A DNA stretch of 64,000 nt, from contig CACOPD010000003.1 of the NCBI GenBank assembly GCA_902628835.1, positions 22,053 through 86,052 on the forward strand, read 5' to 3'. The notes beneath the pieces are model-generated. The model did no database searches. It was given only the letters and a program-made list of their open reading frames with translations, and had not been told where the DNA came from. Within the stretch, counting starts at the first letter, position 1, and the number at the start of each line of letters is the position of its first letter. The DNA is from an uncultured Alphaproteobacteria bacterium (lineage in GTDB: Bacteria > Pseudomonadota > Alphaproteobacteria > HIMB59 > GCA-002718135). This document shows, piece by piece, positions 30,499 through 62,486 of this stretch. The position numbers and the translations under genes were made by a program.

Positions 30499-30511
30499 TT
30501 AATCTTTAAAT

Positions 30512-32263: not shown

Positions 32264-32264
32264 T

Positions 32265-32444: not shown

Positions 32445-32447
32445 AAA

Positions 32448-36484: not shown

Positions 36485-37952
36485 GTGCTATATCCTTATT
36501 TGAAGAGTATAAATCTTTCCAGATAGAATATCGTTTTAAAAGTAGATCAATTTTATTGTCTATAGGATTAAAAGTTTCACTAATTTTTATTTCTTTTATT
36601 ATACTAACATCACTATTAATATTTTTATCGACATGCATTGCTAATCTAGCAACTCCAAGAGCAGCTCCAAATTCACTTTGATTACAAACACTGAGATTTC
36701 TATTTAGAAGTGAGGCTATTAATTCAATCCAAAATTTACTTTTTGAACCTCCTCCAACCATAAAGATTTTTTCAAAGTTTTTATTTACTTTAAGTATAGA
36801 GTTTACACCGTCAAGAATTCCAAAACTTACACCTTCTACAACAGCATATTGTAAATTAGTTGAACTTGTAGTTGTTTTCATTGAGTGAAAAGAACCGCGA
36901 ATATATGGATCATTGTGAGGTGTTCTTTCTCCAGATAAATATGGTAAAAAAAATGGAGAATTTATAAGATTGTTTGTATTAGAAAAATATTTTTCTATAT
37001 TAGTTAAAGTTTCTGTAATAGATGAATTAGTTATTGAACATATCCAATCTAGACAATTACTAGCACTCAACATTACGGACATTAAGTGCCATTTATTTGG
37101 TAAACAATGACAAAATGAATGTACAGCATCTCCAGTATTACTCAAAAAATTGTCTGTTGGAGTGAAAAAGACTCCAGATGTTCCAAGAGATATAAATGAT
37201 TGATTTTCATTTGTTATGCCCATCCCAGTAGCAGCAGCCGCATTATCTCCAGCACCACCAACAACTTTTACATTATTATTAAAATTAAATTTATCTTTTA
37301 ATTCATTTTTTAGAATTCCTGTTTCCTCATTTCCTTCTACAAGATTTGGCATTTGCTTCTCTTGTAGAAACGAACATGATAACAATTCGTCAGACCATTT
37401 TCTTTGTTTTATGTCTAACCATAATGTTCCTGAAGCATCTGACATTTCAGAAAAAAATTCACCAGTAAGAACAAATCGTAAGAAATCTTTAGGAAGTAAA
37501 ACTTTGAAAATTTTTTTAAAATTATCTATTTCGTTATTTTTTATCCAATTTATTTTTGGTGCTGTAAAACCAGGCATGGTAATATTTCCTGAAATTGATC
37601 GTACATCAAAATTTTGTTTTTCAAATTCTTCACATTCTTGATGAGATCTTGTATCATTCCAAAGAATACATGGTCTAATGACCTTTCCATCCTTATCTAT
37701 TAAAGTAGCTCCGTGCATATGACCGGATATGCCAATAGAAATAGTTTGTGAAAATTCTTTTGGTTTTTTTAGCTTTAAAATTTCAAAGCATTCCATTGTT
37801 GAGTCAATCCATTCTTGTGGATTTTGCTCACTAAAGCCATCTTTTGGAGTTTGTACTGTGAGACTTGAATTAGCCGTAGCAAGAATGTTTTGACTTTGAT
37901 CAATTAAAATCATTTTGATTGATGAAGTTCCAAGATCAATACCAATAAACAT
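36468..37952 (-). CDS. xylB: Xylulokinase (FGGY family).
   Basis: Contains MFIGIDLGTSSIKMILID, GISGHMHG, GGAGDNAAAATG, PYLSGERTPH and GGGSKS. Confidence 0.85.
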   Translation of the reverse strand: MFIGIDLGTSSIKMILIDQSQNILATANSSLTVQTPKDGFSEQNPQEWIDSTMECFEILKLKKPKEFSQTISIGISGHMHGATLIDKDGKVIRPCILWNDTRSHQECEEFEKQNFDVRSISGNITMPGFTAPKINWIKNNEIDNFKKIFKVLLPKDFLRFVLTGEFFSEMSDASGTLWLDIKQRKWSDELLSCSFLQEKQMPNLVEGNEETGILKNELKDKFNFNNNVKVVGGAGDNAAAATGMGITNENQSFISLGTSGVFFTPTDNFLSNTGDAVHSFCHCLPNKWHLMSVMLSASNCLDWICSITNSSITETLTNIEKYFSNTNNLINSPFFLPYLSGERTPHNDPYIRGSFHSMKTTTSSTNLQYAVVEGVSFGILDGVNSILKVNKNFEKIFMVGGGSKSKFWIELIASLLNRNLSVCNQSEFGAALGVARLAMHVDKNINSDVSIIKEIKISETFNPIDNKIDLLLKRYSIWKDLYSSNKDIAPSLLT

Positions 37953-42503: not shown

Positions 42504-43547
42504 TTATTTTAAGTTTTTTATATCTTCATTATATGCAAATACAGCTGGACTTCCTCCAGTATAAACAAAAATTACGTTATCTCCTTTTTTAATAATACCC
42601 TTTTGAACATAATCTATTAGAGCTGCAAAACCCTTAGAAGTGTATACAGGATCAAGAATTATAGATTCCTTTTTTGCTAAAAGCTTCATAGCATCAATTC
42701 CTTCTTTTGTAGTAGCTCCATATTTTTCACCTACATAAGTATTGTCATGATTAATCATTTCATGACTAAATTTCATATTTATATCAAGTAGCTTAGCTCC
42801 TTCATTACAAATGCGAGCAATATCCTTTTTGATATCCATTTCCCAATAAACAGGAGAGATACCTTGGATCCGAGTTGGCCAATTTAATATTTTTGCCCCT
42901 AACTCACAGCCAGCTTGTGTCATATTAGCAGCCGTAACAAATAAGTGATCTGCCATAAAATTTTGTTCTCTCATTTGTAAATCAATTTCAGCCATAGCAT
43001 TTGTATAACTAATTCCAGCAAGAGTTGTATCCTCTTTTCCAAATCCACCGTATATAAGTAGAGGTTTTCGACCCTGTTTTATTAGTTCTTTATATTTTCT
43101 ATCTAGATGCTTTGGTATTTCTTCTAAATTCTCTCCATCAACTACATCAACGTTAGCTCCTAAAATATTATATAATAAAAAATTGCCTTGCATTAACTTA
43201 CCTTTTATTCCGTGCATTAATACTAAGTAACTATCTAAATTTAATTTATTTGCTGCTGCTACAGCTTGACGACAAAAATTTGATTGAGAAGAAGCTCCAG
43301 TTAAAATACAATCATACTCTCCAGATAGAGTTTTAGCCATTATAAATTCTAGATGTCTTGTTTTGTTCCCTCCAAAAGCAAGGGCTGTGCAATCATCTCT
43401 TTTTATATATAGATTTATATTTAGCTCTTTAGAAATATTAGGGGCATATTCAAGAACAGTTGGTAGTTGAGCTAATTGAATTCTTGGAATTTTATTTATT
43501 CTTGAAACTAATTCTTTAGCTGATAACGGATTAAAATTAATATTCAT
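42504..43547 (-). CDS. PLP-dependent enzyme of the ACC deaminase / D-cysteine desulfhydrase family.
   Basis: Contains KRDDCTALAFGGNKTRHLEF (the GGNKxRKLE-type Lys motif) and a YTGG C-terminal motif. The tryptophan-synthase-beta-like fold is inferred. Confidence 0.8.
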   Translation of the reverse strand: MNINFNPLSAKELVSRINKIPRIQLAQLPTVLEYAPNISKELNINLYIKRDDCTALAFGGNKTRHLEFIMAKTLSGEYDCILTGASSQSNFCRQAVAAANKLNLDSYLVLMHGIKGKLMQGNFLLYNILGANVDVVDGENLEEIPKHLDRKYKELIKQGRKPLLIYGGFGKEDTTLAGISYTNAMAEIDLQMREQNFMADHLFVTAANMTQAGCELGAKILNWPTRIQGISPVYWEMDIKKDIARICNEGAKLLDINMKFSHEMINHDNTYVGEKYGATTKEGIDAMKLLAKKESIILDPVYTSKGFAALIDYVQKGIIKKGDNVIFVYTGGSPAVFAYNEDIKNLK

Positions 43548-43577
43548 TTTTACAACTACACTCTCTAATTTTTAAAA

Positions 43578-45311
43578 TTAATGACTATGTCTTTTAACTT
43601 CTGATCCTCTTTTACCAATTAGAAAGTCTAAATCTGCACCTTTATCAGCTTGCATTACGTGATCAACATACATTTTTTGATAACCCCCAGTAATTTCAGG
43701 TAAGACTGGAGAATAATTTTCTAAACGATTTTTAATAGTGTAATCGTCAACTTTAAGGTTCATCATACCTTGATTAACATCAATTTCAATTTGATCTCCA
43801 TTTTGAACAGCAGCTAAAGGCCCCTTTACCGCTGCTTCAGGTGCAGTATGTAGAATTACAGTACCATAAGCTGTACCACTCATCCTCGCATCTGAAATCC
43901 TAATCATATCTCTAACTCCTTTTTTTAGAATCTTTTGAGGCAGCCTCATGTTACCAACTTCTGCCATACCTGGATAACCTCTAGGACCACAATTTTTTAA
44001 AACTAAAATACAAGTCTCATCCACATCAAGTTTTGGATCATCTATTTTATCGTGAAATTCTTCAACACTTTCAAAAACCACTGCTCTTCCCGTATGCTTC
44101 ATTAATTCTGGTGATGCAGCAGAAGGTTTAATTATTGCACCATTAGGTGCAATATTTCCCCAAAGAATTTTTATTCCTCCATTTTCAGTTAAAGGTTTTT
44201 CAAATTCTTTAATAACTTCGTTATTCCAACATTTAGCATCTTTATTATTCTCTCCAATAGTTTTCCCATTTACTGTCATTTCATTTTCATCTAGTAATTT
44301 TTTTTCAAGCAATCTTTTGATAACTACTGGTACCCCTCCAGCGTAGTAAAAATCTTCCATTAAATATTTTCCAGATGGTTGTAAATTAACTAATGTAGGA
44401 ATACCTTCTCCACACTTATTCCAATCATCTAATTCTAGGTCAATTTCTAATCGTCCTGCAATAGCAGCTAAATGAATTACTGCATTGGTTGATCCTCCTA
44501 TAGCTCCATTGACTTTTATTGCATTTTCAAAAGATTTTTTTGTTACAATTTTTGACATTGTCATATTTTCTTTGACCATTTCAACAATTCTTTTTCCAGA
44601 CATATGAGATAAAGCATATCGTCTAGAGTCAACAGCAGGTATTGCTGCATTGCCTGGTAATGACATTCCAAGTGCTTCAACCATTGATCCCATTGTAGAT
44701 GCAGTGCCCATTGTCATACAATTACCTTTTGATCTGCTCATTGATATTTCAGCATTTATAAAATCTTCCTCTGTTATTATTCCTGCATTTAAATCAGCAT
44801 CAAGTTTCCAAACACCTGTGCCCGAACCAATAATTTCACCTTGATGATGACCATTTAACATTGGTCCTCCAGAAATACCTATAGTCGGCAAGTCTACACT
44901 AGCAGCGCCCATCATCAGTGAAGGAGTTGTTTTATCACATCCCATTAAAAGTACGACTCCATCTATTGGGTTTCCTCTTATAGCTTCTTCAACGTCCATA
45001 CTTGCTAAGTTTCTAAATAACATTGCGGTTGGTCTAAGATTTGATTCACTTGCAGAAAAAACAGGGAACTCTAAAGGAAAACCACCAGCTTCATACACGC
45101 CTTTTTTTACTGACTCTGCTATCTCTCTAAAATGTCCATTACAAGGAGTTAATTCAGACCAAGTATTACAAATTCCAATAACTGGACGACCATCAAATAA
45201 ATGGTTTGGGTGTCCTTGATTTCTCATCCACCCTCTATGTATGAAAGTATCTCTTCTATGTAATTTAGAGTTGTACCAATCCGATGATCTAAATTTGTTT
45301 TTTTTATTCAC
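43578..45311 (-). CDS. IlvD/Edd-family dehydratase of the pentonate (xylonate/arabinonate) dehydratase type.
   Basis: Contains RS.DWY…HRGWMRNQG, GRPVIGICNTWSELTPCNGH, MGCDKTTP, CMTMGTASTM and GGSTNAVIHL. The N-terminal pattern matches XylD/AraC-type enzymes rather than ILV IlvD. Confidence 0.85.
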   Translation of the reverse strand: MNKKNKFRSSDWYNSKLHRRDTFIHRGWMRNQGHPNHLFDGRPVIGICNTWSELTPCNGHFREIAESVKKGVYEAGGFPLEFPVFSASESNLRPTAMLFRNLASMDVEEAIRGNPIDGVVLLMGCDKTTPSLMMGAASVDLPTIGISGGPMLNGHHQGEIIGSGTGVWKLDADLNAGIITEEDFINAEISMSRSKGNCMTMGTASTMGSMVEALGMSLPGNAAIPAVDSRRYALSHMSGKRIVEMVKENMTMSKIVTKKSFENAIKVNGAIGGSTNAVIHLAAIAGRLEIDLELDDWNKCGEGIPTLVNLQPSGKYLMEDFYYAGGVPVVIKRLLEKKLLDENEMTVNGKTIGENNKDAKCWNNEVIKEFEKPLTENGGIKILWGNIAPNGAIIKPSAASPELMKHTGRAVVFESVEEFHDKIDDPKLDVDETCILVLKNCGPRGYPGMAEVGNMRLPQKILKKGVRDMIRISDARMSGTAYGTVILHTAPEAAVKGPLAAVQNGDQIEIDVNQGMMNLKVDDYTIKNRLENYSPVLPEITGGYQKMYVDHVMQADKGADLDFLIGKRGSEVKRHSH

Positions 45312-45343
45312 TAATAAAAGTTTTATCTAATTAAAGTAAAAAA

Positions 45344-46219
45344 TCAAATTTTAAATTTATTATCTTCTAAACCAGGAGTATTTAGATTTAATGCAAATAA
45401 ACCACCGTCATAGTTATGTTTACCTTCATTGAACGCAGTAGTTATATAGAGAGTTTTTAGATCACTTCCTCCAAATACGCAATTTGTAACATTTTCTACA
45501 GGCAATTCATAAATCTGATCAATATTCCCATTGGGATCAATTCTTACCACACATGACCCACCCCAACGACAGTTCCATATATATCCCTCACTATCAATCG
45601 TAGAGCCATCTGGTAATCCACGTTCAAAATCAAAAAAAACTTTTTTATCTGATAAAGAGCCATCATCTAAATTAAAATTATATTCAAGCAATGAACCGTC
45701 TGTTGTATCAGCGAAATAAAATTTTAAATTGTCAGGACTCCAAATAAATGTGTTAGGAATACCAAGGTTTTTTTCTACAATATTTAATTGATTATCTGAT
45801 AAGCAATATAAACTTCCAGATTTAGTATTTAAAGGTTTAGGACTGCCATCTGAATTGAAATTGTTTTGCATTGTACCAAACCACAATCTACCTTTAGCAT
45901 CAGAACCTCCATCGTTAGATCTATTTGTAGAAATATCATTTTCTACATTTATTAATCTTTCATATTTTTTTGTTTGAAGATTAAATTTGTTAACACCATT
46001 GTTTGACACTAAAGCAATTTCATTGTTTGAAATTATAGATGATGCTGTAACAAATTCTGGTAGATCATAAGTTTCTAATTTTTCAGTTTGTAGGTTTAAT
46101 CTGAATAATACCGATTTTGGTTTAATATCAACCCAAAATAGGCTTCCATCAAATGAAGACCAAGTTATTCCTTCTCCTAAACTATTTTTAACATCCAGGA
46201 ATAATTCAACATTACTCAT
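45344..46219 (-). CDS. SMP-30/gluconolactonase/LRE-family lactonase.
   Basis: Contains LGEGITW, LFWVDI, NDGGSDAKGRLWFGTM, PNTFIWSPD, PDGSTIDSEGYIWN and LYITTA, the six-blade propeller lactonase signatures. Confidence 0.85.
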   Translation of the reverse strand: MSNVELFLDVKNSLGEGITWSSFDGSLFWVDIKPKSVLFRLNLQTEKLETYDLPEFVTASSIISNNEIALVSNNGVNKFNLQTKKYERLINVENDISTNRSNDGGSDAKGRLWFGTMQNNFNSDGSPKPLNTKSGSLYCLSDNQLNIVEKNLGIPNTFIWSPDNLKFYFADTTDGSLLEYNFNLDDGSLSDKKVFFDFERGLPDGSTIDSEGYIWNCRWGGSCVVRIDPNGNIDQIYELPVENVTNCVFGGSDLKTLYITTAFNEGKHNYDGGLFALNLNTPGLEDNKFKI

Positions 46220-46263
46220 AGTTAACAGTAATATTATAAAATTAGAAATATATGAAGTTAAGA

Positions 46264-47268
46264 TTAAAGATAATGAGCTTTATCTTTAATACGAGCCATT
46301 ACTTCTTTTGTAGCTTCTTCTGAGCCATCATGAAAAGTTCCCATAAGTTTATCTAAAAAACTTGTGTTGCCGCCAGAGTAATTACATTCAAAATATTTGT
46401 GATGGATATAATGCATATAGTCTCCTGTTGGTATTGCTACACCATTTTTAAAAGTCATTTTTTCATATCCTGTATGTCCTGGTGTTGGAGCTAAACCTGC
46501 ATGAAAAACATGATACATTGCAACTAAAGGATGAGAGGGAATAATCCAATGAATAAGAATACCTGAGAAATAAAGTATATGTTCTATTGGATGCATAGAC
46601 ATACCCGACCAGGCTCCTGTGTTGGTATTACGATGATGAACTTTATGAGCTATTTTATAAAGAGGTCCCCAATGTAATAATCTATGTGTTAAATAAAAAT
46701 GTGCATCTCTGATAAAAGGAACAAGAAAAAACATGAAACAACAATATATTGGATAAATTTCCCAACTAACGTAGGGAATTAATTGATTTGCAAATGCCCA
46801 AAATGTAACTACTTCATAAGCGGTCCAAAATGGGATAGCGCTACAAAAAGTATAGAATAAATTATCTTTTGTTTGATCGTTAAATAAAAACTTTTTATGC
46901 TTTTCTAAGGGTCTGGGATTATATTTAAAAGAAGTTCCTTGGGTTTTTAATTTTAGGTGAAAAAAACCTGTCCATACAAGTATAATTGCTGCATTTCTGA
47001 AAAAAATATAAGATATCCAGCCAACTTCAAAAGTCTTCATAGTTTCCAATGAAGGTGTTAAAAATAAATAGGTTGCTACTGTTATTGCACCAAAAACAAA
47101 TGTCCATGGAAAGAAAATTCCTGGAAATTTAAAAAAATATTTAAACAATTTTATTGGATTATAAAAAATTTCTCTAGGTGGGTTTATGCTTATAGTACCG
47201 AAAGGTTTCCAATGCCCTCTCTTGTCTCTAGTACCATAATTTTCATCATTTAATTTATCTTTGCTCAC
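46264..47268 (-). CDS. Membrane fatty-acid-hydroxylase / sterol-desaturase superfamily di-iron oxygenase.
   Basis: Several TM helices plus His boxes HFYLTHRLLHW, HKVHHRN, HPIEH and HYIHHKY. Confidence 0.8.
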   Translation of the reverse strand: MSKDKLNDENYGTRDKRGHWKPFGTISINPPREIFYNPIKLFKYFFKFPGIFFPWTFVFGAITVATYLFLTPSLETMKTFEVGWISYIFFRNAAIILVWTGFFHLKLKTQGTSFKYNPRPLEKHKKFLFNDQTKDNLFYTFCSAIPFWTAYEVVTFWAFANQLIPYVSWEIYPIYCCFMFFLVPFIRDAHFYLTHRLLHWGPLYKIAHKVHHRNTNTGAWSGMSMHPIEHILYFSGILIHWIIPSHPLVAMYHVFHAGLAPTPGHTGYEKMTFKNGVAIPTGDYMHYIHHKYFECNYSGGNTSFLDKLMGTFHDGSEEATKEVMARIKDKAHYL

Positions 47269-47271
47269 AAC

Positions 47272-48105
47272 CTAGCCTCTTTTTTCTAAATTATTTAAAA
47301 ATATATCTAATTCATTTTCTTTAATCTCTACAATATTTTTTTTCTCAGGAAAAGTGCCAGAATGTACATCGTCATAAAACTCTTGGAAAGCTGTCTCTCT
47401 TTCTTTTTGAAGTCTAGCGAATTCTTGTTGAAAATCCCTATATTTTTTTGCATGACGCGGTATTTTACCTTTTGTGGTTCCTAATATGTCGCATCCGAAA
47501 ACATACTCTACATCACAACCAGGTCCACTTCCCATTGACATAACTGTTGGTTGTACTTTTTTTGAAATAACCTCTGCGATTTTGTAGGGCACACACTCCA
47601 TCTCTATAGCAACTCCTCCGGCATCTTGAATTTTTAAACACTGGTCATACACCCACATAGCTTCATCGGCAGTTTTACCAACTGCTACAAATCCACCAGT
47701 CCATGTTCTTTTTGGAGGAACTAAACCAACATGTCCCAGACAAGGGATACCCTCTCTATATAATTCTTTTATGAGATCAAAACGCGTATTACAATAAAGC
47801 ATATCAAAACCGTGTTCTAATATCTTAAAAGAAAATTTTTTTGCCTCATCAATTGTAGGGATAAAACTATCAGGGGCACCACAGTGCATAAATGCAGTTG
47901 GGGCGGCTTCTCTCATTTTTACTAATTGATCAAAATTTGGATGACCATCTTCATTTTTATACTTGCCTGCTAAACCAGTAGCAAGCATTTCAAAACCAAC
48001 TTTATCAGCTGCTAATGCCTCCTCTTCATTTTTAATTAATATACAAACTAATTTTTTTTTACTTTTAAAGTTTTGCAAATCTTTAACCGTTATTTTTTTT
48101 ATCAT
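47272..48105 (-). CDS. PanB-like (ketopantoate hydroxymethyltransferase family) protein, divergent, copy 1.
   Basis: Clear similarity to the PanB C-terminal half: GIPCLGHVGLVPPKRTWTGGFVAVGKT, AGGVAIEMECVP and SMGSGPGCDVEYVF…GKIPRHAKKY. The canonical N-terminal GDSLGM / ADLPF / KIEGG segments are replaced by ATGLAGK / MHCGAP / MLYCNT. Confidence 0.7.
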   Translation of the reverse strand: MIKKITVKDLQNFKSKKKLVCILIKNEEEALAADKVGFEMLATGLAGKYKNEDGHPNFDQLVKMREAAPTAFMHCGAPDSFIPTIDEAKKFSFKILEHGFDMLYCNTRFDLIKELYREGIPCLGHVGLVPPKRTWTGGFVAVGKTADEAMWVYDQCLKIQDAGGVAIEMECVPYKIAEVISKKVQPTVMSMGSGPGCDVEYVFGCDILGTTKGKIPRHAKKYRDFQQEFARLQKERETAFQEFYDDVHSGTFPEKKNIVEIKENELDIFLNNLEKRG

Positions 48106-48107
48106 AA

Positions 48108-49121
48108 TTAATTTGTACCTGGTACCTCAACATCCAAATAATAGTTTTTATCTTTTGCTTGTCTGAAAATAGCAGGAATAATTTCTTTATAAGCGTTTAT
48201 TACTCCTTTTTTTGGAAGTGGCATTTGTTCTTTTACTACTTGATGAAAAGCTTTGAGATTATGACAAGGGATTTTAGGAAAAATATGATGCTCAATATGA
48301 TATTCCATACTTGAATATAAAAAACTAAAAAAAGGATTCATAATTACTGTTCTTGTACTTTTCCTATGATCTTTAATATTATCTGCTAATCCAGCATGTT
48401 GGGTCATTCCACATATCATAAGAATTGTATTTCCATAAAATGGAGGAAGAATTAACATAATTATTGGCAGCCAAGTTTTAAAAAGGATTGAAGCAGCAAT
48501 TATAATTAACCAAAAACCAACATACAGCCTTGAACTATTTATGATTTTTATAATTTCTTTTTCAGGTACTGTGATTTTTACAACAGGTGTGATTATTCCT
48601 AATGAATGTTTTATTATTTCAAAATGTGTAAAATGTCTTATTTTTTGAATATTAATTAAAGGACCTAGTGGTAAAAAATTTAAAAGAAATCTTATAGGTT
48701 CAGTGGGTTTAGGACTATTGTTTTCATAATCATATACTTCCTCATGAGTAAAAATTGTGTAGGTGTGGTGATGAAAATGACTCCATTTCCATCTGACTGC
48801 TTCAAAACCTCCTAATAATGAAGTGATGTGGTAGAAAAATTTATTTAAACCTCTTGTCTTAAAATATGTTTCATGGTTAGTTTCATGCTGAATACTGATA
48901 ATTTTACAATAAAAAATGTTTCCATAAAGAAGAAGCGCAGGTATTGACCACAATGTTCCCCAAGTAAATATGCATAAATATCCACTTATTAATAACATAA
49001 TGATGAAAATGGATATATCTACGATACCTTTAAAGTCTGATCGTTTAGATAATTTTTTTAGAATTTTTTTATCTATATTTGGCTTATACCAAGTTTTTAA
49101 ATCAACCTCGCCTGCGTACAT
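48108..49121 (-). CDS. Membrane fatty-acid-desaturase-family di-iron oxygenase, copy 1.
   Basis: Has TM helices and the three His boxes HETNHE, HFHHHTYT and HIEHHIFP. It is a paralog of 51559..52545. Confidence 0.8.
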   Translation of the reverse strand: MYAGEVDLKTWYKPNIDKKILKKLSKRSDFKGIVDISIFIIMLLISGYLCIFTWGTLWSIPALLLYGNIFYCKIISIQHETNHETYFKTRGLNKFFYHITSLLGGFEAVRWKWSHFHHHTYTIFTHEEVYDYENNSPKPTEPIRFLLNFLPLGPLINIQKIRHFTHFEIIKHSLGIITPVVKITVPEKEIIKIINSSRLYVGFWLIIIAASILFKTWLPIIMLILPPFYGNTILMICGMTQHAGLADNIKDHRKSTRTVIMNPFFSFLYSSMEYHIEHHIFPKIPCHNLKAFHQVVKEQMPLPKKGVINAYKEIIPAIFRQAKDKNYYLDVEVPGTN

Positions 49122-49124
49122 TAA

Positions 49125-49952
49125 TTAAAAATTTTCTGAAAGCTTTAAAAATTTATCAAATTCACTTTGATCAATATTAACAGTAATTTTTGGATCATCA
49201 AATTTTTTATTTACTGTGTCGTCATGAAACTCTTTAAATGCATTTATTCTTTCAGATTGAAGTTTTTCAAATTCTTTTTTAAAATCTCTGTAAATACGAG
49301 CATGTCTTGGTATTTTCCCTTGTGTATATCCAAGCACATCATTTGCAAATAAATATTGTCCATCACATCCTGAACCACTACCCATTGAAAGGGTCATGAT
49401 ATCAACTTTTTTTGTTATTACTTCAGCAACTTTTGGAGGAACTACTTCAAGCTCAACACCGACTGCACCGGCTTCTTGTAATTTCAAAGTATGTTCTAAG
49501 ATTCTAATAGCTTTATCTGCTGTTTTACCTTGAGCGACAAAACCACCGATCCATGTTGCATTTCCAGGAACTAATCCGACATGACTATTAATTGGGACAT
49601 ATTCATCTCTTAATGCACGTATCCATTTATAACTCCAATTGCCTCCGTAAATAACATCTGCGCCAATATCTAAATATTTATGAGATAACTTCATTGCCTC
49701 GTATTCAGAAGCAACTCTTACAGCACCTCCTGACTGCATAAAGCAAGTTGGTGCAGCTTCACGAATTCTTTTTAATTCATCAAAAGAATTATAAATTCCA
49801 AATTGTGGAGCATCATGAGAAGTGCATATCATATCTATACCTGCTTCTTCTGCTGCAGCAGCTTCGTCTGCATTATGGACAAACATGACGCTTAGTTGTC
49901 TTTTACCTTTACATTGTAAATAGTCATAGACCGTTAGTTTTTTTCTACTCAT
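49125..49952 (-). CDS. PanB-like protein, divergent, copy 2.
   Basis: Contains NSHVGLVPGNATWIGGFVAQGKT, AGAVGVELEVVP and SMGSGSGCDGQYLF…GKIPRHARIY. CTSHDAP replaces GDSLGM. It is a paralog of 47272..48105. Confidence 0.7.
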   Translation of the reverse strand: MSRKKLTVYDYLQCKGKRQLSVMFVHNADEAAAAEEAGIDMICTSHDAPQFGIYNSFDELKRIREAAPTCFMQSGGAVRVASEYEAMKLSHKYLDIGADVIYGGNWSYKWIRALRDEYVPINSHVGLVPGNATWIGGFVAQGKTADKAIRILEHTLKLQEAGAVGVELEVVPPKVAEVITKKVDIMTLSMGSGSGCDGQYLFANDVLGYTQGKIPRHARIYRDFKKEFEKLQSERINAFKEFHDDTVNKKFDDPKITVNIDQSEFDKFLKLSENF

Positions 49953-49968
49953 AAAATCTCCAGTTTAC

Positions 49969-50286
49969 TTAATCTATCTTAATGAAAATTTTATCATTAT
50001 CAACTTTTACTGGATATGTCTTTAAATCCTCACAAGCAGGAGGGCTAAGAGCTTCTCCAGATTTAATGTTAAATACACCTTGATGCATTGGACATTCTAT
50101 TTCGTCATCCATCACTAAACCATCTTCAAGATGAACTACTTCATGAGTGCAGTAGCCATCAGTTGCATAAAATCCATCGGTTAATCTGTACACACAAAAT
50201 GTTTTATCACCATGATCAAATCTTATAAGGTCTTCTTCTTCTATACTGTCTATAGAGCCGACTTCTATCCAATTTTCTTCCGCCAT
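49969..50286 (-). CDS. Rieske-type [2Fe-2S] ferredoxin.
   Basis: 105 aa with CTHEVVH…(x15)…CPMHQGVF (CxH…CxxH). Its size is that of BphF/TodB-like soluble electron carriers. Confidence 0.85.
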   Translation of the reverse strand: MAEENWIEVGSIDSIEEEDLIRFDHGDKTFCVYRLTDGFYATDGYCTHEVVHLEDGLVMDDEIECPMHQGVFNIKSGEALSPPACEDLKTYPVKVDNDKIFIKID

Positions 50287-50324
50287 AATGATATATATAT
50301 TAGTAAAATTAGTAAAATAAATAG

Positions 50325-51554
50325 TTATTTAGATATAAGTTTATTAAGTTTTTGGCTTTCATCGCCTAAAATTCTTTTATCAACCATTACATTTTTTTCT
50401 GCTAATTTTGTAGTAATACGAATATCTCGTCCAACTTTTCCAGCGACACCTAAACCACATGCACCTTTGATCGATTTATTTTTGAGAAAAAAATAAATAA
50501 TTCCATTTTCAATATTTTTTCCTCTTTCAATAATTTCATCAAAGTTTTCACAAATACCAGTCAACTGAAGATTTAAATTAAATTGATCAGACCACATCCA
50601 TGGAATTGAGGTGTATTCTGTTTTAAGTCCAGATATATTTTTACCTGCACAAATACCATGGTTCTGAGCATGCTGATAAGACTCTAAGCGTATATACTGC
50701 TTATATAAAGGGTGATAAAAATTAGATACATCACCAGCAGCGTAAACATCTTTAATTGATGTTTCACAAAATTCATTTGTTACAATTCCGTTATCTAATT
50801 TCAAGTCTGTATTTTCAAATAATGAAACACTTGGCTTTGATCCTATGCCTGCGATAATAAAGTCTGCTTCTAGTTCGGAATTATCACTTAATAAAATCTT
50901 ATAGTTTTCATTAAATTTGGATATTTGTAAAATTTGTTTGTTTAAAATTATTTTGTTACCTGCAGCTTCATGCGTATGTTTAACCAAATCAGCAATTGGT
51001 TTAGGTATAATTCTGCCCATAAGCTGATTTCCTATCTCAATTAGAGTTACTTTTTTATTAAGCTGAGAAAGAGATGATGCTATTTCAAGTCCAATAAAAC
51101 CACCGCCAATAATTACAATATTATTTTTGTTTTCAATTTTCTTTTTAATTATCTTTGCTTCTTCTAAATTTCTAAGATAATGAATCTCATTTTCTAAATT
51201 ATTATCTAATTTAAGTTTATTATTTTCAGAACCTGTAGCAATCAACAAAATGTCATACCTATATTCTTTCTCATTATTAGAAACTAAAGTTTTTGTGTTA
51301 AAATCTACTTTTTCTATATTTGTATTTATATAAAAAATTTTTTTATCATCTAATATCTTTGAATTATTGAAGACTAAATCCTCTTCATTTTTTTTATTTA
51401 ACAAATAGTCTTTAGATAAAGGTGGTCTCTCATAAGGAAGTTGCTTTTCTTCACCTAAAATAGTAATTGATACTTTTTCATCATTTCTTCGTGTTTCTCT
51501 TGCTGCATATAAAGCGGATTGGCCTCCGCCTAAAATAAGTATTTTCTTTTTCAC
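50325..51554 (-). CDS. FAD-dependent NAD(P)H:ferredoxin reductase (pyridine nucleotide-disulfide oxidoreductase family).
   Basis: Contains ILILGGGQSALYAA (FAD), YERPPLSK, IVIIGGGFIGLEIAS (NAD) and YAAGDV. Its 409-aa length resembles BphG/TodA/putidaredoxin-reductase-type enzymes. Confidence 0.85.
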   Translation of the reverse strand: MKKKILILGGGQSALYAARETRRNDEKVSITILGEEKQLPYERPPLSKDYLLNKKNEEDLVFNNSKILDDKKIFYINTNIEKVDFNTKTLVSNNEKEYRYDILLIATGSENNKLKLDNNLENEIHYLRNLEEAKIIKKKIENKNNIVIIGGGFIGLEIASSLSQLNKKVTLIEIGNQLMGRIIPKPIADLVKHTHEAAGNKIILNKQILQISKFNENYKILLSDNSELEADFIIAGIGSKPSVSLFENTDLKLDNGIVTNEFCETSIKDVYAAGDVSNFYHPLYKQYIRLESYQHAQNHGICAGKNISGLKTEYTSIPWMWSDQFNLNLQLTGICENFDEIIERGKNIENGIIYFFLKNKSIKGACGLGVAGKVGRDIRITTKLAEKNVMVDKRILGDESQKLNKLISK

Positions 51555-51558
51555 AAGT

Positions 51559-52545
51559 TTAAATTTTACTTGGAATTAAAAGTTCAATTTTATAATCAGG
51601 ATTTTTTGATTGTTTATATAATGCCGGAATAATTTCTTTGTAAGCACCCCACAAACCCTTTCTTATTGGTGGCATTTGATCCTTAATCATATCATGTAAT
51701 TTTGGTAAGTTGTAGGAAGGAACCTGTGGAAACATATGGTGCTCAATATGATATTCCATTTGCCAATATAGAAAACTAAATATTGGATTTAAAAGAACGG
51801 TTCTAGTGCTATGTCTGTGATCTTTAACATCTTCCTTAAGACCAGCATGCTGAGTTGCTCCAAAAAGAGTTATCAATGTTTTTCCATAAAAATTTGGTAA
51901 AACGATAAATAATAAAGGAAGCCATGATTGGAAGTATATAGATGCTGCAAGTGTAGCTACCCATATAAAAACATGACTTCTTGCTGACCATCTGCATTTA
52001 TTTCTTTCCTTTTCAGGAATACAAACTTTCATAACATCTGTTGTTACACCACAAGCATGCTTAATTGTTTCCCAGTGAAGTGAATTATGTATGTAAAGGA
52101 AACTTGAGAAAGGTATAAATAGAGAAAAAAACCATATTAGGTCTGTTGGTTTTTTCACAAGTATTTCAAAATCATAAGGATCGTTGAATATTGTATAAGA
52201 GTGATGATGAAAATGGGAGTAGCGCCATCTTACTGGCTCAAAGTTATCCATGAAGCCAGCAATATAATAAAAAAAATCATTCCAAAACTTACTTTTAAAT
52301 GCAGTTCTGTGTCCAGTTTCATGCCACAGCGCGTCTGAACAACCCCAGATATTACCATATATAAAAAAGAAAAGTACACACCACCATGTGCCCCATGTTA
52401 AATAAGCGAGGTATCCAGAAATAAATAATGCTGAGAAATATATAATCATGTGTTTAAAACCTTGCCAGTCAGATTTTTTACACAGTTTTTTAAATTCTTT
52501 TTTATCTATATCAGCTCGATACCATTTACCTAAATCAACTTCCAT
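51559..52545 (-). CDS. Membrane fatty-acid-desaturase-family di-iron oxygenase, copy 2.
   Basis: His boxes HETGHR, HFHHHSYT and HIEHHMFP. It is collinear with copy 1, for example HRHSTRTVLLNPIFSFLYWQMEYHIEHHMFP versus HRKSTRTVIMNPFFSFLYSSMEYHIEHHIFP. Confidence 0.8.
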   Translation of the reverse strand: MEVDLGKWYRADIDKKEFKKLCKKSDWQGFKHMIIYFSALFISGYLAYLTWGTWWCVLFFFIYGNIWGCSDALWHETGHRTAFKSKFWNDFFYYIAGFMDNFEPVRWRYSHFHHHSYTIFNDPYDFEILVKKPTDLIWFFSLFIPFSSFLYIHNSLHWETIKHACGVTTDVMKVCIPEKERNKCRWSARSHVFIWVATLAASIYFQSWLPLLFIVLPNFYGKTLITLFGATQHAGLKEDVKDHRHSTRTVLLNPIFSFLYWQMEYHIEHHMFPQVPSYNLPKLHDMIKDQMPPIRKGLWGAYKEIIPALYKQSKNPDYKIELLIPSKI

Positions 52546-52723
52546 GACTTAAAATATCACTTTTTGGAAAAGGATTAAATATAAAATTAAAAATTTAATA
52601 TCAAATATGTCGCATTTTCTCTTATTTTGGCTCATGTTTAAATTTAAAATTTTAGTAAATAAATGTATTTGTATTATTCTTTTTTATACTTATAAATTAA
52701 AGCATAAATTATTTGGAGGAATT

Positions 52724-53704
52724 ATGAAAAAAATCTTTGCCGTCATTGCTCTATTTTTTGCTTTTGTATCTACTTCAGCAGTAGCAAAAAATGATTACAG
52801 CTGTGATAAGAAATTTATATTTTTCCCAGGTGGTCCTGAAGGTGGTCCATTTGGAACTATCGTTTACAATGGTGCAGTAGCTGCTGCTGAACACACTGGT
52901 TGCGATGTAGATTACTACTGGTCACAATGGAACTCAGAAATAATGATTAAGCAGTTTAAAGAAGCTGTTGCCTTACAACCTGATGGAATTGCAATCTATG
53001 GTTTTCCAGGTGATGCTGCTATGAGACCAATTATTCAAGAAGCTAGAGAAATGGGAATAGTAATTACTACTATGAACACACCTCTTCCTGATCTTGAAGC
53101 AGAATATAAAACTGAAGGTTTTGGTTATGCTGGAGCAGATCTATTTGATGCTGGATTTAATCTAGGTAAAAAAGCTGTTGAGGTTTGTGGTTTACAAGCT
53201 GGAGACAAAGCTTTTATCTGGGGTCTAGCAAGTATGCCAAATAGAGGAGAAAGAACAAAAGGTGCAATAGCTGGTGTTGAAGCAGCTGGTGTCGAAGTTG
53301 TTTATCAAGAAATTCCTGATAACGTAAACTCAGATGCATCTCAGGGAACTCCTATGTACGTTGCTACTTACAGTGCAAATCCTGATATAAAAATGGCTAT
53401 TACAGATCATGGAGGATTAACTGCAAGTTTACCAACATACATGAAAGCTGCAGGTCATGGTACTGAAGAAGTATGTGGTGCTGGATTTGATTTATCAGCT
53501 CCAATTGTTGACGGAATTAATTCTGGATACATTGATGTAGTAATTGATCAGCAACCATTTATCCAAGGATATATGCCAATTGTTCAGTTATTCCTGAGCA
53601 CTAAATACGGAATGGCTGGATTAGCAATGGATACTGGTGCTGCATTTGTTACAGCTGATAACGTAGGTGCTGTTGCTCCATTAGCTGCAGTACAAATCAG
53701 ATAA
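52724..53704 (+). CDS. Periplasmic sugar-binding protein (PBP type I, CUT2-type ABC transporter).
   Basis: GGAGGA 4 nt upstream of ATG 52724 and signal peptide MKKIFAVIALFFAFVSTSAVA. The track's start at 52607 adds a non-credible 39-aa extension. Composition is rich in A/G, like the other abundant binding proteins. Confidence 0.85.
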   Translation: MKKIFAVIALFFAFVSTSAVAKNDYSCDKKFIFFPGGPEGGPFGTIVYNGAVAAAEHTGCDVDYYWSQWNSEIMIKQFKEAVALQPDGIAIYGFPGDAAMRPIIQEAREMGIVITTMNTPLPDLEAEYKTEGFGYAGADLFDAGFNLGKKAVEVCGLQAGDKAFIWGLASMPNRGERTKGAIAGVEAAGVEVVYQEIPDNVNSDASQGTPMYVATYSANPDIKMAITDHGGLTASLPTYMKAAGHGTEEVCGAGFDLSAPIVDGINSGYIDVVIDQQPFIQGYMPIVQLFLSTKYGMAGLAMDTGAAFVTADNVGAVAPLAAVQIR

Positions 53705-53718
53705 ATAAAATTATATAA

Positions 53719-53748
53719 CCTGCCTTATTTTAAGGCAGGTTTTTTTTT
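53719..53748 (+). terminator. Intrinsic terminator/attenuator between the binding-protein gene and the ATPase gene.
   Basis: CCTGCCTTA-TTT-TAAGGCAGG followed by T9. The ATPase ATG (53749) directly follows the T-run. Confidence 0.75.
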
Positions 53749-54516
53749 ATGGCAGAAGAACTCTTAAAATTAGAAAATATTTATAAAAACTTTGGAAACG
53801 TAAAAGTTTTAAAAGATGTAAACATCAAAATAAATAAAGGTGAAGTGGTAGCTTTAATTGGTGATAACGGAGCTGGAAAATCAACACTTATAAAAGTCAT
53901 AACGGGAGTCCATACGCCAAACTCAGGAAAAGTTTTTTTCAAACAAGAAGAAGTTCAAATAAAATCAGTTGCTCAATCAAGAAAAATGGGGATTGAAGCC
54001 GTATATCAAGAAAGAGCATTATGTGATCAACAAGAATTATACAGAAATATTTTTGCTGGAAGAGAAATTACAAATTCATTTGGTTTTTTAGATATAAAAA
54101 AACAAAGAAAAGAAGCTGAAAAGATTTTACGTGACTATATAGGGTTTACTTCAAAAGCCATAACAGTTGACTCTCAAGTAATGGGACTTTCTGGTGGAGA
54201 AAAACAGGGTGTAGCTTTTGGTAGATCATTATATTTTAATTCTGATTTAATCGTATTAGATGAACCAACTATGGGTTTATCGATTCAAGAAACTGAAAAA
54301 GTTCTTAATTTTGTAAAAGGTTTAAAAAATGAAAATAAATCTGCAATTTTTATCGATCATAATATAATACACGTTTACGGAGCTGCAGATAGATTTATTA
54401 TCTTAGATAGAGGTGAAGTAGTTGGTGAATTTAATAAAGAAGATATTTCTAGAGAAGAACTTGTTCAAAAAATGATTCAACTCCATGAATCAGGAAAAAT
54501 AAAAGTGGAAGATTAA
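53749..54516 (+). CDS. ABC transporter ATP-binding protein with a single nucleotide-binding domain (FrcA-like).
   Basis: Contains GDNGAGKST, LSGGEKQGVA and VLDEPTMGL. At 255 aa it is half the size of typical CUT2 ATPases. Confidence 0.9.
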   Translation: MAEELLKLENIYKNFGNVKVLKDVNIKINKGEVVALIGDNGAGKSTLIKVITGVHTPNSGKVFFKQEEVQIKSVAQSRKMGIEAVYQERALCDQQELYRNIFAGREITNSFGFLDIKKQRKEAEKILRDYIGFTSKAITVDSQVMGLSGGEKQGVAFGRSLYFNSDLIVLDEPTMGLSIQETEKVLNFVKGLKNENKSAIFIDHNIIHVYGAADRFIILDRGEVVGEFNKEDISREELVQKMIQLHESGKIKVED

Positions 54517-55494
54517 ATGAATAATTTAATAAATAGTTATTTTGTAAAAACTCACAAACTTGAAATTAGTATTACAATAATTGCTTTAGTACTTTTCTTA
54601 ATTTACTTTTTGGGTGCACCACATGTATTTACAAGATTTCCTATTTATAGAGCTTTTATGCAATCAATGCCTTTTTTTGGAATTATTGCTATATCAGCAA
54701 CATTTGTTGTTACACTTGGTGAAATTGATTTATCATTTCCATCTATAGTTGGAATTACTTCTCTCATATTTGGAATCATAATGACATCAACTGATGGTAA
54801 TTTTTTTATAGCATTTATCTTAGCAACTTCACTTGGAATGTTTGCTGGATTAGTAAATGGATTACTTGTTACTAAAATTGGGATACCTTCAATAGTTGCC
54901 ACTATAGGTACATTGTTTTTTTGGCGTGGATTGGTTAATGTAATTTCTCAAGGTAGTGGTATTGCGATAGTTGATGTAGCAGATGGAACCTGGCATCATA
55001 TGATTTTTGTTGAAAAACTATTTGGAAAAATTCCAATGCAATTTATTTGGTTTATTGTATTAACTGGATTGATGCAATGGGTTTATCGATACCATAAATT
55101 TGGAAATCACATTCACTTTGTAGGTGATAACAAAGCAAGTGCTCAAATGATGGGAATTAATGTTGATAATGTAAAAATAATCGCTTTTGTTCAATTAGGC
55201 TTTTTCTCTGCTTTAGCAGGAATTTTTACAATGTATGAAATGTTATATTTCTGGCCTACACAAGGTGAAGGTTTAATGTTAACCACACTAGCAGCTGTCT
55301 TTGTTGGCGGTACTTCAGTCTTTGGTGGCAAGGGTACTATTTTTGGGACATTTATTGGAGTGTTAATAATTGGCTCTTTAGAATCAGGAATAGTTGCTCT
55401 AGGCTTATCGGGTTTTTATGTAAAATTTATTAATGGACTCATGATTACAGTTGCTGTTACAGTTTACGCTCTAATACAAAGAAGAAAAAATTAA
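54517..55494 (+). CDS. ABC transporter permease (RbsC/FrcC type).
   Basis: Multi-pass membrane protein with GEIDLSFPSIVG and GGKGTIFGT. Confidence 0.9.
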   Translation: MNNLINSYFVKTHKLEISITIIALVLFLIYFLGAPHVFTRFPIYRAFMQSMPFFGIIAISATFVVTLGEIDLSFPSIVGITSLIFGIIMTSTDGNFFIAFILATSLGMFAGLVNGLLVTKIGIPSIVATIGTLFFWRGLVNVISQGSGIAIVDVADGTWHHMIFVEKLFGKIPMQFIWFIVLTGLMQWVYRYHKFGNHIHFVGDNKASAQMMGINVDNVKIIAFVQLGFFSALAGIFTMYEMLYFWPTQGEGLMLTTLAAVFVGGTSVFGGKGTIFGTFIGVLIIGSLESGIVALGLSGFYVKFINGLMITVAVTVYALIQRRKN

Positions 55495-56228
55495 TAAGTA
55501 GCTCGACCTCCACTCAAATCAAAAGTTGATCCTGTCGTATAAGAATTTTCTTCAGAAGACATCCATGCAACTAAGGAAGCTAATTCTTCAACCAACACAA
55601 ATCTATTTCTAGGAATTTTTGATAACATATAATCAATATGTTCTTGAGTAATTTGATCGAAAATACGCGTCTTAGCAGGTGCAGGGGTAACACAATTCAC
55701 TGCAATGTTATTTTCAGCTAATTCTTTTCCTAATGATTTAGTAAGCGCAATAACTCCTGCTTTTGCTGCACTATAAGGCATTGCATTAGGATTGCCTTCC
55801 TTTCCTGCTATTGAGGAAATATTAACAATGCGTCCATAATTATGCTTCATAAAATGAGGGACAACAGTTTTACAACAAAAAAATACTCCACTAAGATCTA
55901 TGTCTATAACTTTTTGCCACTCCTCAAGAGGATAATCCCATGTCTTAAAGTTTGGTCCAGCTATTCCTGCATTATTTACTAGAATATCAATTTTATTTTC
56001 GTATGTAAGACTTTTGGCGAATGCATTCTTCACACTTTTATAGTTTGAAACATCAACTTCAATTTTTTGAGTATTTTTTAAATCAACCTTGTTCAGATAC
56101 TCTACATCTTTATCCCATATTAAAACTTTAGCACCTGAGTCTATAAATCTTTTCGTGATTGCTAAACCAAAACCTTGTGCTCCTCCAGTAACGATAGCTA
56201 CTCTATTTTCTAAATTAATTTTGTTCAT
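55491..56228 (-). CDS. Short-chain dehydrogenase/reductase (FabG-like).
   Basis: Contains IVTGGAQGFG, NNAG and YSAAKAG. Confidence 0.9.
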   Translation of the reverse strand: MNKINLENRVAIVTGGAQGFGLAITKRFIDSGAKVLIWDKDVEYLNKVDLKNTQKIEVDVSNYKSVKNAFAKSLTYENKIDILVNNAGIAGPNFKTWDYPLEEWQKVIDIDLSGVFFCCKTVVPHFMKHNYGRIVNISSIAGKEGNPNAMPYSAAKAGVIALTKSLGKELAENNIAVNCVTPAPAKTRIFDQITQEHIDYMLSKIPRNRFVLVEELASLVAWMSSEENSYTTGSTFDLSGGRATY

Positions 56229-61034: not shown

Positions 61035-61121
61035 CAATCCTCCATTATAATTTTCACAACACCAGCCCACCTCGAGCGATGTTTAATTCATGCGTAGCTA
61101 TGGAAATTATAATATAAGATC

Positions 61122-61172
61122 CGCGTTCCTTCGGTTTAACCTACTTCCGATCTGCTTTCACAGATTGAACGA
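61122..61172 (-). promoter_or_regulatory. glnA-RNA-type glutamine riboswitch aptamer, 3' copy of a tandem pair.
   Basis: The minus strand reads UCGUUCA-AUCUG-UGAAAG-CAGAU-CGGAAGUAG-GGU-UAA-ACC-GAAGGAACGCG. The conserved cores CGUUC…GGAAGUAG…AAGGAACG are present and the stems are closed by base pairs different from the other copy. Confidence 0.8.
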
Positions 61173-61188
61173 TTTGATAACTTAGCAT

Positions 61189-61238: not shown

Positions 61239-61325
61239 TAAAAAATCATATAGATTTTTATAATTTAATTTTTAAGCTTAAATTTGTAAATGTAAATATG
61301 CAAAAAATGCATATCAAAAAATATA

Positions 61326-62477: not shown

Positions 62478-62486
62478 AATAACTCC

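Follow-up and report, generated by a model that had tools for sequence, protein, structure and literature searches.

The operon and its conservation

A 64,000-nucleotide stretch of contig CACOPD010000003.1, from an uncultured alphaproteobacterium and referred to here as the window (G+C about 30%), was found to carry an operon of ten genes at 42504-52545 on the minus strand. The operon joins three membrane di-iron oxygenases and their electron-transfer proteins, related to the rhizobial MocDEF system, with a sugar lactonase, a putative sugar-acid dehydratase and two PanB-like proteins. It is proposed to serve the catabolism of a modified monosaccharide in a SAR11-type alphaproteobacterium, most likely an O-methylated aldose of arabino/galacto configuration, by the route set out below. 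The probability of this reading is put at about 50%.

The ten open reading frames (ORFs) fill the interval exactly, and are given here in the order of transcription:

51559-52545, minus strand, MocD-like membrane di-iron oxygenase 2 (FA_desaturase family; PF00487 and His boxes), first gene of the operon
50325-51554, minus strand, MocF-like NAD(P)H:ferredoxin reductase (Pyr_redox_2 and Reductase_C)
49969-50286, minus strand, MocE-like Rieske [2Fe-2S] ferredoxin (Rieske Pfam model and TIGR02377)
49125-49952, minus strand, PanB-like protein 2, the copy found in all SAR11 cluster variants (PF02548)
48108-49121, minus strand, MocD-like membrane di-iron oxygenase 1 (PF00487 and His boxes)
47272-48105, minus strand, PanB-like protein 1, an accessory copy missing from the commonest SAR11 variant (PF02548)
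46264-47268, minus strand, FA_hydroxylase-family membrane di-iron oxygenase (PF04116 and His boxes)
45344-46219, minus strand, SMP-30/gluconolactonase-family sugar lactonase (PF08450)
43578-45311, minus strand, predicted IlvD/EDD-family sugar-acid dehydratase of the L-arabinonate type (ILVD_EDD_N/ILVD_EDD_C and structure matches)
42504-43547, minus strand, fold-type II pyridoxal phosphate (PLP) enzyme of the ACC-deaminase/D-cysteine-desulfhydrase family, variable last gene of the operon (PALP)

Counted from the 42504 end upward, the spacers between the genes are 30, 32, 44, 3, 2, 3, 16, 38 and 4 nt. A scan for consensus terminators gave no terminator-like hairpin between the ten genes, and its sole minus-strand match there, at 42559-42545, falls within the gene of the PLP enzyme, the last of the operon. 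No Rfam family was matched in or near the operon, the divergent spacer included. Coordinates and scan agree with a preliminary description of this DNA, which reported ten co-directional minus-strand genes with spacers of 2-44 nt and no terminators. All eight Pfam families named in that description were confirmed by Pfam search.

About 20 SAR11-like genomes have the genes in the same order, with protein identities of 45-94%, so the objection that the genes might not be syntenic elsewhere fails. SAR11-type single-cell genomes are the closest relatives, PanB-like protein 1 sharing 90-94% identity with its counterparts in L006, L007, L020 and L074 (loci are given by their numbers). The cluster is a real, conserved operon, far from a chance assembly of genes. 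Its conservation as a catabolic cluster agrees with the earlier view of one unit that handles an imported sugar-like compound.

Variation within the SAR11-like loci showed that the operon consists of two separable modules. A 5.8-kb insert parts the oxygenase half from the lactonase/dehydratase half in L006 and L007, and L009 is without the lactonase/dehydratase half. The insert, which in L006 sits between the FA_hydroxylase and lactonase genes (11852-17629), carries a GMC oxidoreductase and a CUT1 transporter and, in L006, a third PanB-like gene. An extra block in L074 (10263-15885), on the opposite strand directly after the dehydratase gene, holds a CUT1 ABC transporter, a third PanB-like gene and two PhyH dioxygenases. 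The two modules occur together in 17-18 of the 20 SAR11 loci. A single PanB-like gene (copy 2) with three oxygenases is the commonest SAR11 form, to which the form in the window adds copy 1.

Oxygenase module

Three His boxes are intact in each of the three oxygenases. Oxygenases 1 and 2, which are 48% identical to each other, matched the FA_desaturase family (PF00487) with 107.1 and 127.3 bits, respectively, and the boxes of oxygenase 2 are HETGH, HFHHH and HIEHH. The FA_hydroxylase-family enzyme (PF04116, 72 bits) has the boxes HFYLTH, HKVHH and HYIHH. A weak match to the model of the L-arginine hydroxylase GntB was observed for oxygenase 1. Sequence searches gave no relative of solved structure for either the desaturase-like or the FA_hydroxylase kind of oxygenase. 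The reductase was recognized by Pyr_redox_2 (212.8 bits) together with Reductase_C and is HcaD-like (301 bits). The ferredoxin matched the Rieske Pfam model with 60.5 bits and scored 136.0 bits with the MocE family TIGR02377, just under the cut-off of 136.15.

A homologous operon on plasmid pA of Rhizobium etli CIAT652 is annotated mocD-mocEa-mocFa. The ferredoxin is 62% identical to R. etli MocE, the reductase is 33% identical to MocF, and the two MocD-like oxygenases are 41% (oxygenase 2) and 35% identical to MocD. From these identities the trio of electron-transfer and oxygenase genes is a MocDEF homologue. Analogy with the same trio in rhizobial mocDEF operons thus supports the earlier suggestion that the Rieske ferredoxin and reductase supply the di-iron enzymes with electrons. 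Homologues of the FA_hydroxylase, 47-58% identical, are found in sugar loci of Sinorhizobium and Chloroflexi. The Sinorhizobium gene likewise adjoins a Rieske ferredoxin and a reductase, together with a LacI regulator and a sugar-binding protein, and the Chloroflexi gene adjoins a CUT1 sugar transporter and a GFO_IDH_MocA dehydrogenase.

MocDEF supplies the ferredoxin and oxygenase functions of the mocCABRDEF locus, by which Sinorhizobium meliloti and Rhizobium leguminosarum catabolise rhizopine (3-O-methyl-scyllo-inosamine), and a demethylase role was reportedly assigned to it by Bahar et al. in 1998. It is an oxygenase required for the catabolism of the methyl ether rhizopine (PMC3538637, PMC5789663). 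In R. mesoamericanum, mocDEF is induced by pinitol-rich exudate (PMC5789663), and for a regulator adjoining mocDEF a connection with an inositol derivative has been described (PMC3538637). The analogy with MocDEF would make an O-methyl group the most likely modification of the sugar. The operon shares with MocDEF a membrane oxygenase of the FA_desaturase type, a MocE-like Rieske ferredoxin and an FAD reductase with Reductase_C, and it resembles the moc locus in adjoining a CUT2 sugar-type binding protein. It differs from MocDEF in its gene order, D-F-E, and in the presence of two MocD paralogues and an FA_hydroxylase. The MocR regulator, MocA and MocC of the moc locus are absent from the operon, its downstream route appears to be aldose-lactone-aldonate and not the inositol pathway, and its host is marine. 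MosDEF was considered as a further relative of MocDEF and was dropped, as it is an unrelated FAD dehydrogenase complex.

The names FA_desaturase and FA_hydroxylase, as well as weak matches to the lipid desaturases DesA and DesB, could suggest that the membrane enzymes desaturate or hydroxylate lipids, or that the cluster makes a branched metabolite, and that they lie beside sugar genes incidentally. The DesA/DesB matches, however, reached 21-39 bits against cut-offs of 500, and acyl-lipid or acyl carrier protein genes are absent from the cluster. Across phyla the neighbours are sugar-binding-protein transporters, LacI regulators, sugar dehydrogenases, lactonases and sugar-acid dehydratases. 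An explanation by lipid or branched-metabolite chemistry is therefore extremely improbable.

A homologue of the FA_hydroxylase (49% identity) was observed in L095 (8001-10135) convergent with folD, the gene for methylene-tetrahydrofolate dehydrogenase/cyclohydrolase. This is a single case and may be due to chance.

Sugar-acid module

The lactonase matched the SGL family (PF08450) with 243.2 bits. Its best solved relative was 7PLB (149.7 bits), deposited as a Smp-30/Cgr1 family protein, which we take to be the Caulobacter xylonolactonase. The dehydratase matched ILVD_EDD_N with 368.8 bits and ILVD_EDD_C with 203.2 bits. Over its full length it gave 826 bits to 5J83/5J84, deposited as a dihydroxy-acid/phosphogluconate dehydratase and presumably the L-arabinonate dehydratase of R. 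leguminosarum, and 823.8 bits to 9EVV, deposited as L-arabinonate dehydratase. Its matches to true dihydroxy-acid dehydratases did not exceed 335 bits. With the NCBIfam model for L-arabinonate dehydratase it reached 831 bits, at a cut-off of 882. As judged from these scores, the enzyme appears to be of the sugar-acid and not the branched-chain type, and to be close to L-arabinonate dehydratase.

A lactonase (AraB), an L-arabinonate dehydratase (AraC) and an L-2-keto-3-deoxyarabinonate dehydratase (AraD) make up the corresponding part of the non-phosphorylative L-arabinose pathway of Azospirillum and Rhizobium. The operon resembles this pathway in its SMP-30 lactonase followed by an IlvD/EDD dehydratase, and the relatives L004 and L005 (65% identity) add a DHDPS-family gene after the dehydratase, at the position of AraD. 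DHDPS-family genes are also present in L008, L023, L037 and L062. The operon in the window differs in having a PLP lyase at the AraD position, and its candidate dehydrogenase, a short-chain dehydrogenase/reductase (SDR), is encoded outside the operon.

The PLP enzyme (PALP, 115.8 bits) fell below every equivalog cut-off, namely 268 against 450 bits for CuyA, 198.8 against 429 for DcyD and 165.9 against 392 for ACC deaminase. Its best solved relative was the D-cysteine desulfhydrase 7YSK, and these matches would place it in the superfamily and not in a narrower group. The gene was present in only five of the 20 SAR11 loci and is therefore regarded as accessory; in other loci a DHDPS-family gene stands at that position, and in L023 and L037 such a gene directly follows the PLP gene. 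The glucosaminate deaminase OngC was tried as a model for the PLP enzyme and rejected, since OngC is of fold-type III and belongs to another family.

PanB-like proteins

Both PanB-like proteins belong to Pantoate_transf (PF02548), with 115.3 bits for PanB-like 1 and 129.8 bits for PanB-like 2 at a cut-off of 28.7. With the panB equivalog TIGR00222 they reached 89.6 and 104.3 bits, respectively, far below its cut-off of 207.55. The two copies are 46% identical to each other and 21-23% identical to true PanB, and PanB-like 2 is 43% identical to the product of the gene adjacent to mocF in R. etli. An AlphaFold2 model of PanB-like 1 (pLDDT 82) showed a PanB-like TIM barrel, whose best fold matches were PanB structures (TM about 0.7, 21-22% identity).

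Alignments by HMMER and MAFFT (E. coli numbering) revealed that the PanB-like family has an invariant Gly where PanB has D84 and an invariant Tyr in place of K112, and that the position of E114 is variable. The GDS motif at D45 is absent, as seen in the MAFFT alignment, the only one to cover that region. H136, E181 and the motifs of the C-terminal half are kept. The family has invariant motifs of its own, TWxGGFxAVGKT, SMGSGxGCDxQYLF and PRHAKxYRxF, and its invariant polar residues are D101, Y104, K144, E168, E170, D198, H218 and R223. PanB uses a divalent metal to enolise the 2-oxo acid (PMC7770189; PMC13488298), and its reaction is the transfer of a hydroxymethyl group between a 2-oxo acid and tetrahydrofolate (PMC7770189). 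Canonical PanB chemistry is thus unlikely in the PanB-like family, because the metal and oxo-acid residues are lost and the metal is needed for enolisation. The family is almost certainly not PanB. The residue pattern suggests that it was derived from PanB by loss of the Mg/2-oxo-acid half of the active site, the other half being kept. It shares with PanB the TIM-barrel fold, PF02548, H136 and E181, and it differs in its context, which is sugar catabolism and oxygenases and not pantothenate synthesis. In the NCBI annotation (L092, 9457-10284, and other RefSeq records) the genes are named 3-methyl-2-oxobutanoate hydroxymethyltransferase and carry a gene ontology term for pantothenate biosynthesis, which is probably a systematic misannotation.

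The preliminary description had proposed oxidative C-demethylation, in which a C-methyl group of an imported acid or lactone is hydroxylated and the PanB-like proteins then transfer the one-carbon (C1) unit of hydroxymethyl-2-oxo-acids to tetrahydrofolate by reverse canonical PanB chemistry. This proposal draws on the presence of a 2-oxo-acid-making dehydratase, a lactonase and PanB-fold proteins in one operon, on the known PanB reaction (PMC7770189) and on the retention of E181 and H136. Against it stand the requirement of enolisation for a metal (PMC7770189; PMC13488298), when D84, K112, E114 and the GDS motif are all altered or missing, and the scores of both copies far under the panB equivalog cut-off. 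In addition, rhizobial mocDEF-panB-like operons are without a dehydratase or other source of a 2-oxo acid, and the dehydratase of the operon appears to be of the sugar-acid and not the branched-chain type. C-demethylation through 2-oxo acids is the reading least compatible with the missing metal site and the rhizobial contexts, and it is considered improbable; the step on hydroxymethyl-2-oxo-acids is not retained. The removal of a one-carbon unit is a reasonable net outcome, but O-demethylation of a methyl ether fits the data better than C-demethylation.

Distribution and gene neighbours of the PanB-like family

The family-specific motifs were searched in a collection of species-representative genomes, in which at least 584 loci were confirmed. 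A profile search resulted in 318 clusters (50% identity) at E <= 1e-30, with true PanBs appearing from about 1e-39. For the analysis of synteny, ORFs were called in 85 fetched loci and searched with the proteins of the window and with Pfam-labelled seeds; the counts below rest on simple ORF calling and on phmmer with these proteins and seeds. Among loci with enough flank, a MocD-like gene was found within 3.5 kb of the PanB-like gene in 19 of 20 SAR11-like loci and in 33 of 49 others. When any of the three oxygenase families was counted, the numbers rose to 20/20 and 37/49. The PanB-like family is thus genetically tied to oxygenases of three unrelated families, FA_desaturase, FA_hydroxylase and PhyH. 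FA_hydroxylase is the sole oxygenase partner in L008 and L063, and a PhyH dioxygenase is the partner in L002, L010, L044, L061 and the second module of L074, where the genes overlap by 4 nt. In a rough neighbour-joining tree a long branch separates the family from E. coli PanB, and the PhyH-linked copies of SAR324, Chloroflexi and Deinococcota group together. Nearby genes in the 49 non-SAR11 loci included a sugar-type ABC ATPase (35 loci), GFO_IDH_MocA (24 loci) and a LacI regulator (22 loci).

A PanB-like gene directly follows mocF, or mocE where mocF is absent, in R. etli CIAT652, Sinorhizobium sp. B11 and on pSymB of S. meliloti. It does so in R. etli NXC12 as well, where a second mocDEF-PanB-like module has its own sugar ABC transporter. 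The typical order in Rhizobium, Sinorhizobium and Ensifer is a LacI gene followed by divergent genes for desaturase-like oxygenase, Rieske ferredoxin, ferredoxin reductase and PanB-like protein. Typical Mesorhizobium loci have GFO, AP_endonuc_2, binding protein, permease, ATPase, DUF4432, desaturase-like oxygenase, Rieske ferredoxin and PanB-like protein. The literature searched held no paper on sugar demethylases of the desaturase type, on the SAR11 cluster or on a PanB-like neighbour of mocDEF. The preliminary description knew of no characterised pathway with this combination of genes. This needs to be qualified, since the core is MocDEF-like and the 3' half is a lactonase/L-arabinonate-type module, both of known kinds. 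What the literature searched does not describe is the combination of the modules, the presence of several oxygenases and, most of all, the PanB-like partner.

The neighbourhoods also bear on an explanation without demethylation, in which the oxygenases would place a hydroxyl group on a C-H position of a sugar or cyclitol of the deoxy, anhydro or C-branched kind, and the PanB-like protein would be a folate-independent retro-aldolase, lyase or isomerase acting on the oxidised sugar. Multiple PanB-like paralogues that are not matched one-to-one with oxygenases would suit such an enzyme, as would a phylogeny that tracks the type of oxygenase, which is expected of substrate-specific enzymes. Genes acting on keto-sugars, GFO_IDH_MocA (24 of the 49 loci) and AP_endonuc_2, are frequent neighbours, the many invariant polar residues suggest a real active site, and a genomic link to folate enzymes was not seen in the 85 loci. 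On the other hand, we know of no pathway of this type. MocDEF, the sole genetically studied relatives, are tied to a methyl-ether substrate (PMC3538637), and the half of the PanB site that is kept is the non-oxo-acid half, which hints at a common cosubstrate that has been kept. A folate-independent role is accordingly judged unlikely, though it stays alive on the points weighed below.

Transporter, divergent spacer and adjacent dehydrogenase

The following features lie upstream of the operon:

52546-52723, no strand assigned, divergent promoter region of the operon and the transporter, a 178-nt AT-rich spacer
52724-53704, plus strand, CUT2 (Peripla_BP_4) periplasmic sugar-binding protein (PF13407)
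53717-53741, plus strand, attenuator-like hairpin and T-run 3' of the binding-protein gene (11-bp stem, 5 G-C pairs)
53749-55494, plus strand, sugar-transporter ABC ATPase (53749-54516) and permease (54517-55494) (ABC_tran, BPD_transp_2)
55491-56228, minus strand, SDR dehydrogenase, candidate aldose 1-dehydrogenase (adh_short)

The binding protein matched PF13407 with 105.8 bits, and its sole NCBIfam match was the rhizopine binding protein, with 81.9 bits. It has a signal peptide. A GGAGG ribosome-binding site at 52716 and homologues of 326 aa are in accordance with its start at 52724. The divergent sugar-type ABC transporter noted earlier is thus real, it is of the CUT2 type, and the start given for its binding protein was right. 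Next to PanB-like genes of SAR324, Trueperaceae and Boseongicola there are similar binding proteins (173-224 bits). The best NCBIfam matches of the ATPase and the permease were monosaccharide transporters, all below the cut-offs. The divergent spacer is partly conserved in SAR11 loci, including a TGCGACATATTTGA block common to L007 and L074. A search for an operator in the spacer gave short conserved blocks only, without a clear palindrome. The strong hairpin and T-run that separate the binding-protein gene from the ATPase gene are commonly seen where a binding protein is over-expressed.

The SDR matched adh_short with 177.7 bits, a glucose 1-dehydrogenase subfamily with 196.6 bits (cut-off 215) and SDR structures of unnamed function with 295 bits. 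Its gene is kept beside the permease gene in most SAR11 loci. For the missing aldose dehydrogenase, which would supply the lactonase with its substrate, the SDR is the obvious candidate.

Proposed route

In the proposed route the divergent CUT2 transporter would import the modified sugar, which would then be acted on by the two MocD-like and the one FA_hydroxylase-like membrane di-iron monooxygenases. NAD(P)H would supply the oxygenases with electrons, by way of the MocF-like reductase and then the MocE-like Rieske ferredoxin. Hydroxylation of the ether methyl would give a hemiacetal that collapses to the free sugar and a C1 unit at the level of formaldehyde. The PanB-like proteins, as dedicated partners of the oxygenases, would load this unit onto tetrahydrofolate. 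The freed aldose would be oxidised to its lactone, possibly by the SDR (55491-56228), the SMP-30 lactonase would open the lactone, and the L-arabinonate-type dehydratase would form a 2-keto-3-deoxy acid. In relatives a DHDPS-family enzyme would act next, in whose place the operon has a PLP lyase of the D-cysteine-desulfhydrase family. The three oxygenases could serve different positions or different sugars.

Handling of the C1 unit on tetrahydrofolate is proposed because the PanB-like gene is linked to whichever oxygenase is present and because the protein keeps the non-oxo-acid half of the PanB site. Tetrahydrofolate is the route of C1 oxidation in SAR11. It is possible, although somewhat doubtful, that the family is a new one, derived from PanB without its oxo-acid site, which acts as C1 partner of O2-dependent sugar demethylases (membrane di-iron and Fe/2-oxoglutarate) by capture, on tetrahydrofolate, of the hydroxymethyl or formaldehyde unit as it arises. 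A precedent in concept is the trimethylamine N-oxide demethylase Tdm, a bifunctional enzyme in which formaldehyde is reported to be channelled to a folate domain (PMC13619132). The likeness ends at the concept, since the folds are unrelated, Tdm is a single polypeptide, and the role of folate is demonstrated in Tdm and hypothesised for the PanB-like proteins. A functional analogue of the proposed oxygenase step is found in marine Bacteroidota, where a cytochrome P450 with ferredoxin and reductase demethylates 6-O-methyl-D-galactose (PMC6292453, PMC9400963). Both would be three-component monooxygenases that remove a sugar O-methyl group as formaldehyde before ordinary catabolism. Unlike the oxygenases of the operon, the P450 belongs to an unrelated family and is soluble; no PanB-like partner is described for it, and there the formaldehyde is detoxified by a separate system.

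Several observations weigh against the proposed route. The substrate can be proposed at the level of a class only, and the steps past the 2-keto-3-deoxy acid are missing from the operon; neither a DHDPS-family gene nor an aldehyde dehydrogenase was among the scanned ORFs of the window. As far as is known, the evidence for O-demethylation by MocDEF itself is genetic only. About one quarter of the non-SAR11 loci are without a recognised oxygenase near the PanB-like gene; their immediate neighbours are heterogeneous, some being spurious ORFs in high-GC DNA and one a further PhyH. Conversely, a Caballeronia MocD/MocE locus has no PanB-like gene, and no PanB-like gene adjoins the Sinorhizobium FA_hydroxylase. 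A more distant desaturase in a guanidino-acid context is also without one. The PanB-like gene after mocF on plasmid p_4 of R. leguminosarum RCAM2802 (L088, 11750-12536) is frameshifted, in a locus that otherwise resembles a complete moc cluster with iolE, GFO and binding protein, and it may be dispensable or decaying there. The PanB-like gene is thus dispensable in some lineages. PanB-like copies (1, 2 or 3) and oxygenases (1-3) are not matched in number, with three copies beside a single oxygenase in L008, a mismatch more in keeping with substrate-specific enzymes than with a general trap for C1 units. The 85 loci contain no FolD gene beside the PanB-like genes, and a search for domain fusions of the family gave nothing informative, only a tandem duplicate, true PanBs and probable chimeras. 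It is the lack of a folate gene nearby, together with the mismatch and the dispensability, that keeps the folate-independent explanation alive.

SAR11 is usually described as poor in sugar catabolism, and methylated sugars and cyclitols contribute notably to legume exudates and to marine high-molecular-weight dissolved organic matter. The cluster suggests that sugars protected chemically by methylation are within reach of a SAR11-type genome. In that case carbon from the methyl group could enter the folate-linked C1 oxidation for which SAR11 is known, and the fate of methyl-sugars in marine dissolved organic matter would be testable with a defined set of genes. Should the PanB-like proteins be C1 partners as well, a dedicated route from methylated sugars and cyclitols into folate C1 metabolism would exist in SAR11, rhizobia and many other bacteria. 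The family is widespread and annotated as PanB even in model rhizobia (S. meliloti pSymB, R. etli), and can be studied in genetically tractable hosts.

Other genes of the window

A sugar/polyol block at 26511-37952 contains two GMC oxidoreductases, an SDR, a CUT1 binding protein with two permeases, a Zn-dependent alcohol dehydrogenase, a mannitol dehydrogenase and a xylulokinase. Together with the operon it forms a carbohydrate island of about 40 kb. An alphaproteobacterial L-rhamnose-type cluster (16819-26518) comprises a 429-aa AP_endonuc_2 isomerase-like protein, a CUT2 ABC transporter, a 695-aa bifunctional Aldolase_II and SDR protein and an FGGY kinase. This is an unusual sugar capacity for a SAR11-type genome, and a deoxy-sugar, once demethylated, could be taken up by this cluster. 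On the minus strand at 61326-63539, 9 kb from the operon, lie genes for a GFO_IDH_MocA dehydrogenase and an AP_endonuc_2 TIM-barrel protein; in Mesorhizobium this MocA/MocC-like pair is found with mocDE-panB-like modules.

Upstream of an ammonium transporter gene (59748-61070), two glutamine riboswitch aptamers in tandem (RF01739, 59.6 and 63.9 bits) were detected at 61120-61240 on the minus strand. A giant ORF (1-4650, minus strand) extends beyond the start of the window and has at least 1549 aa; its N-terminus is signal-peptide-like, and its repetitive sequence is haemagglutinin-like by eye.

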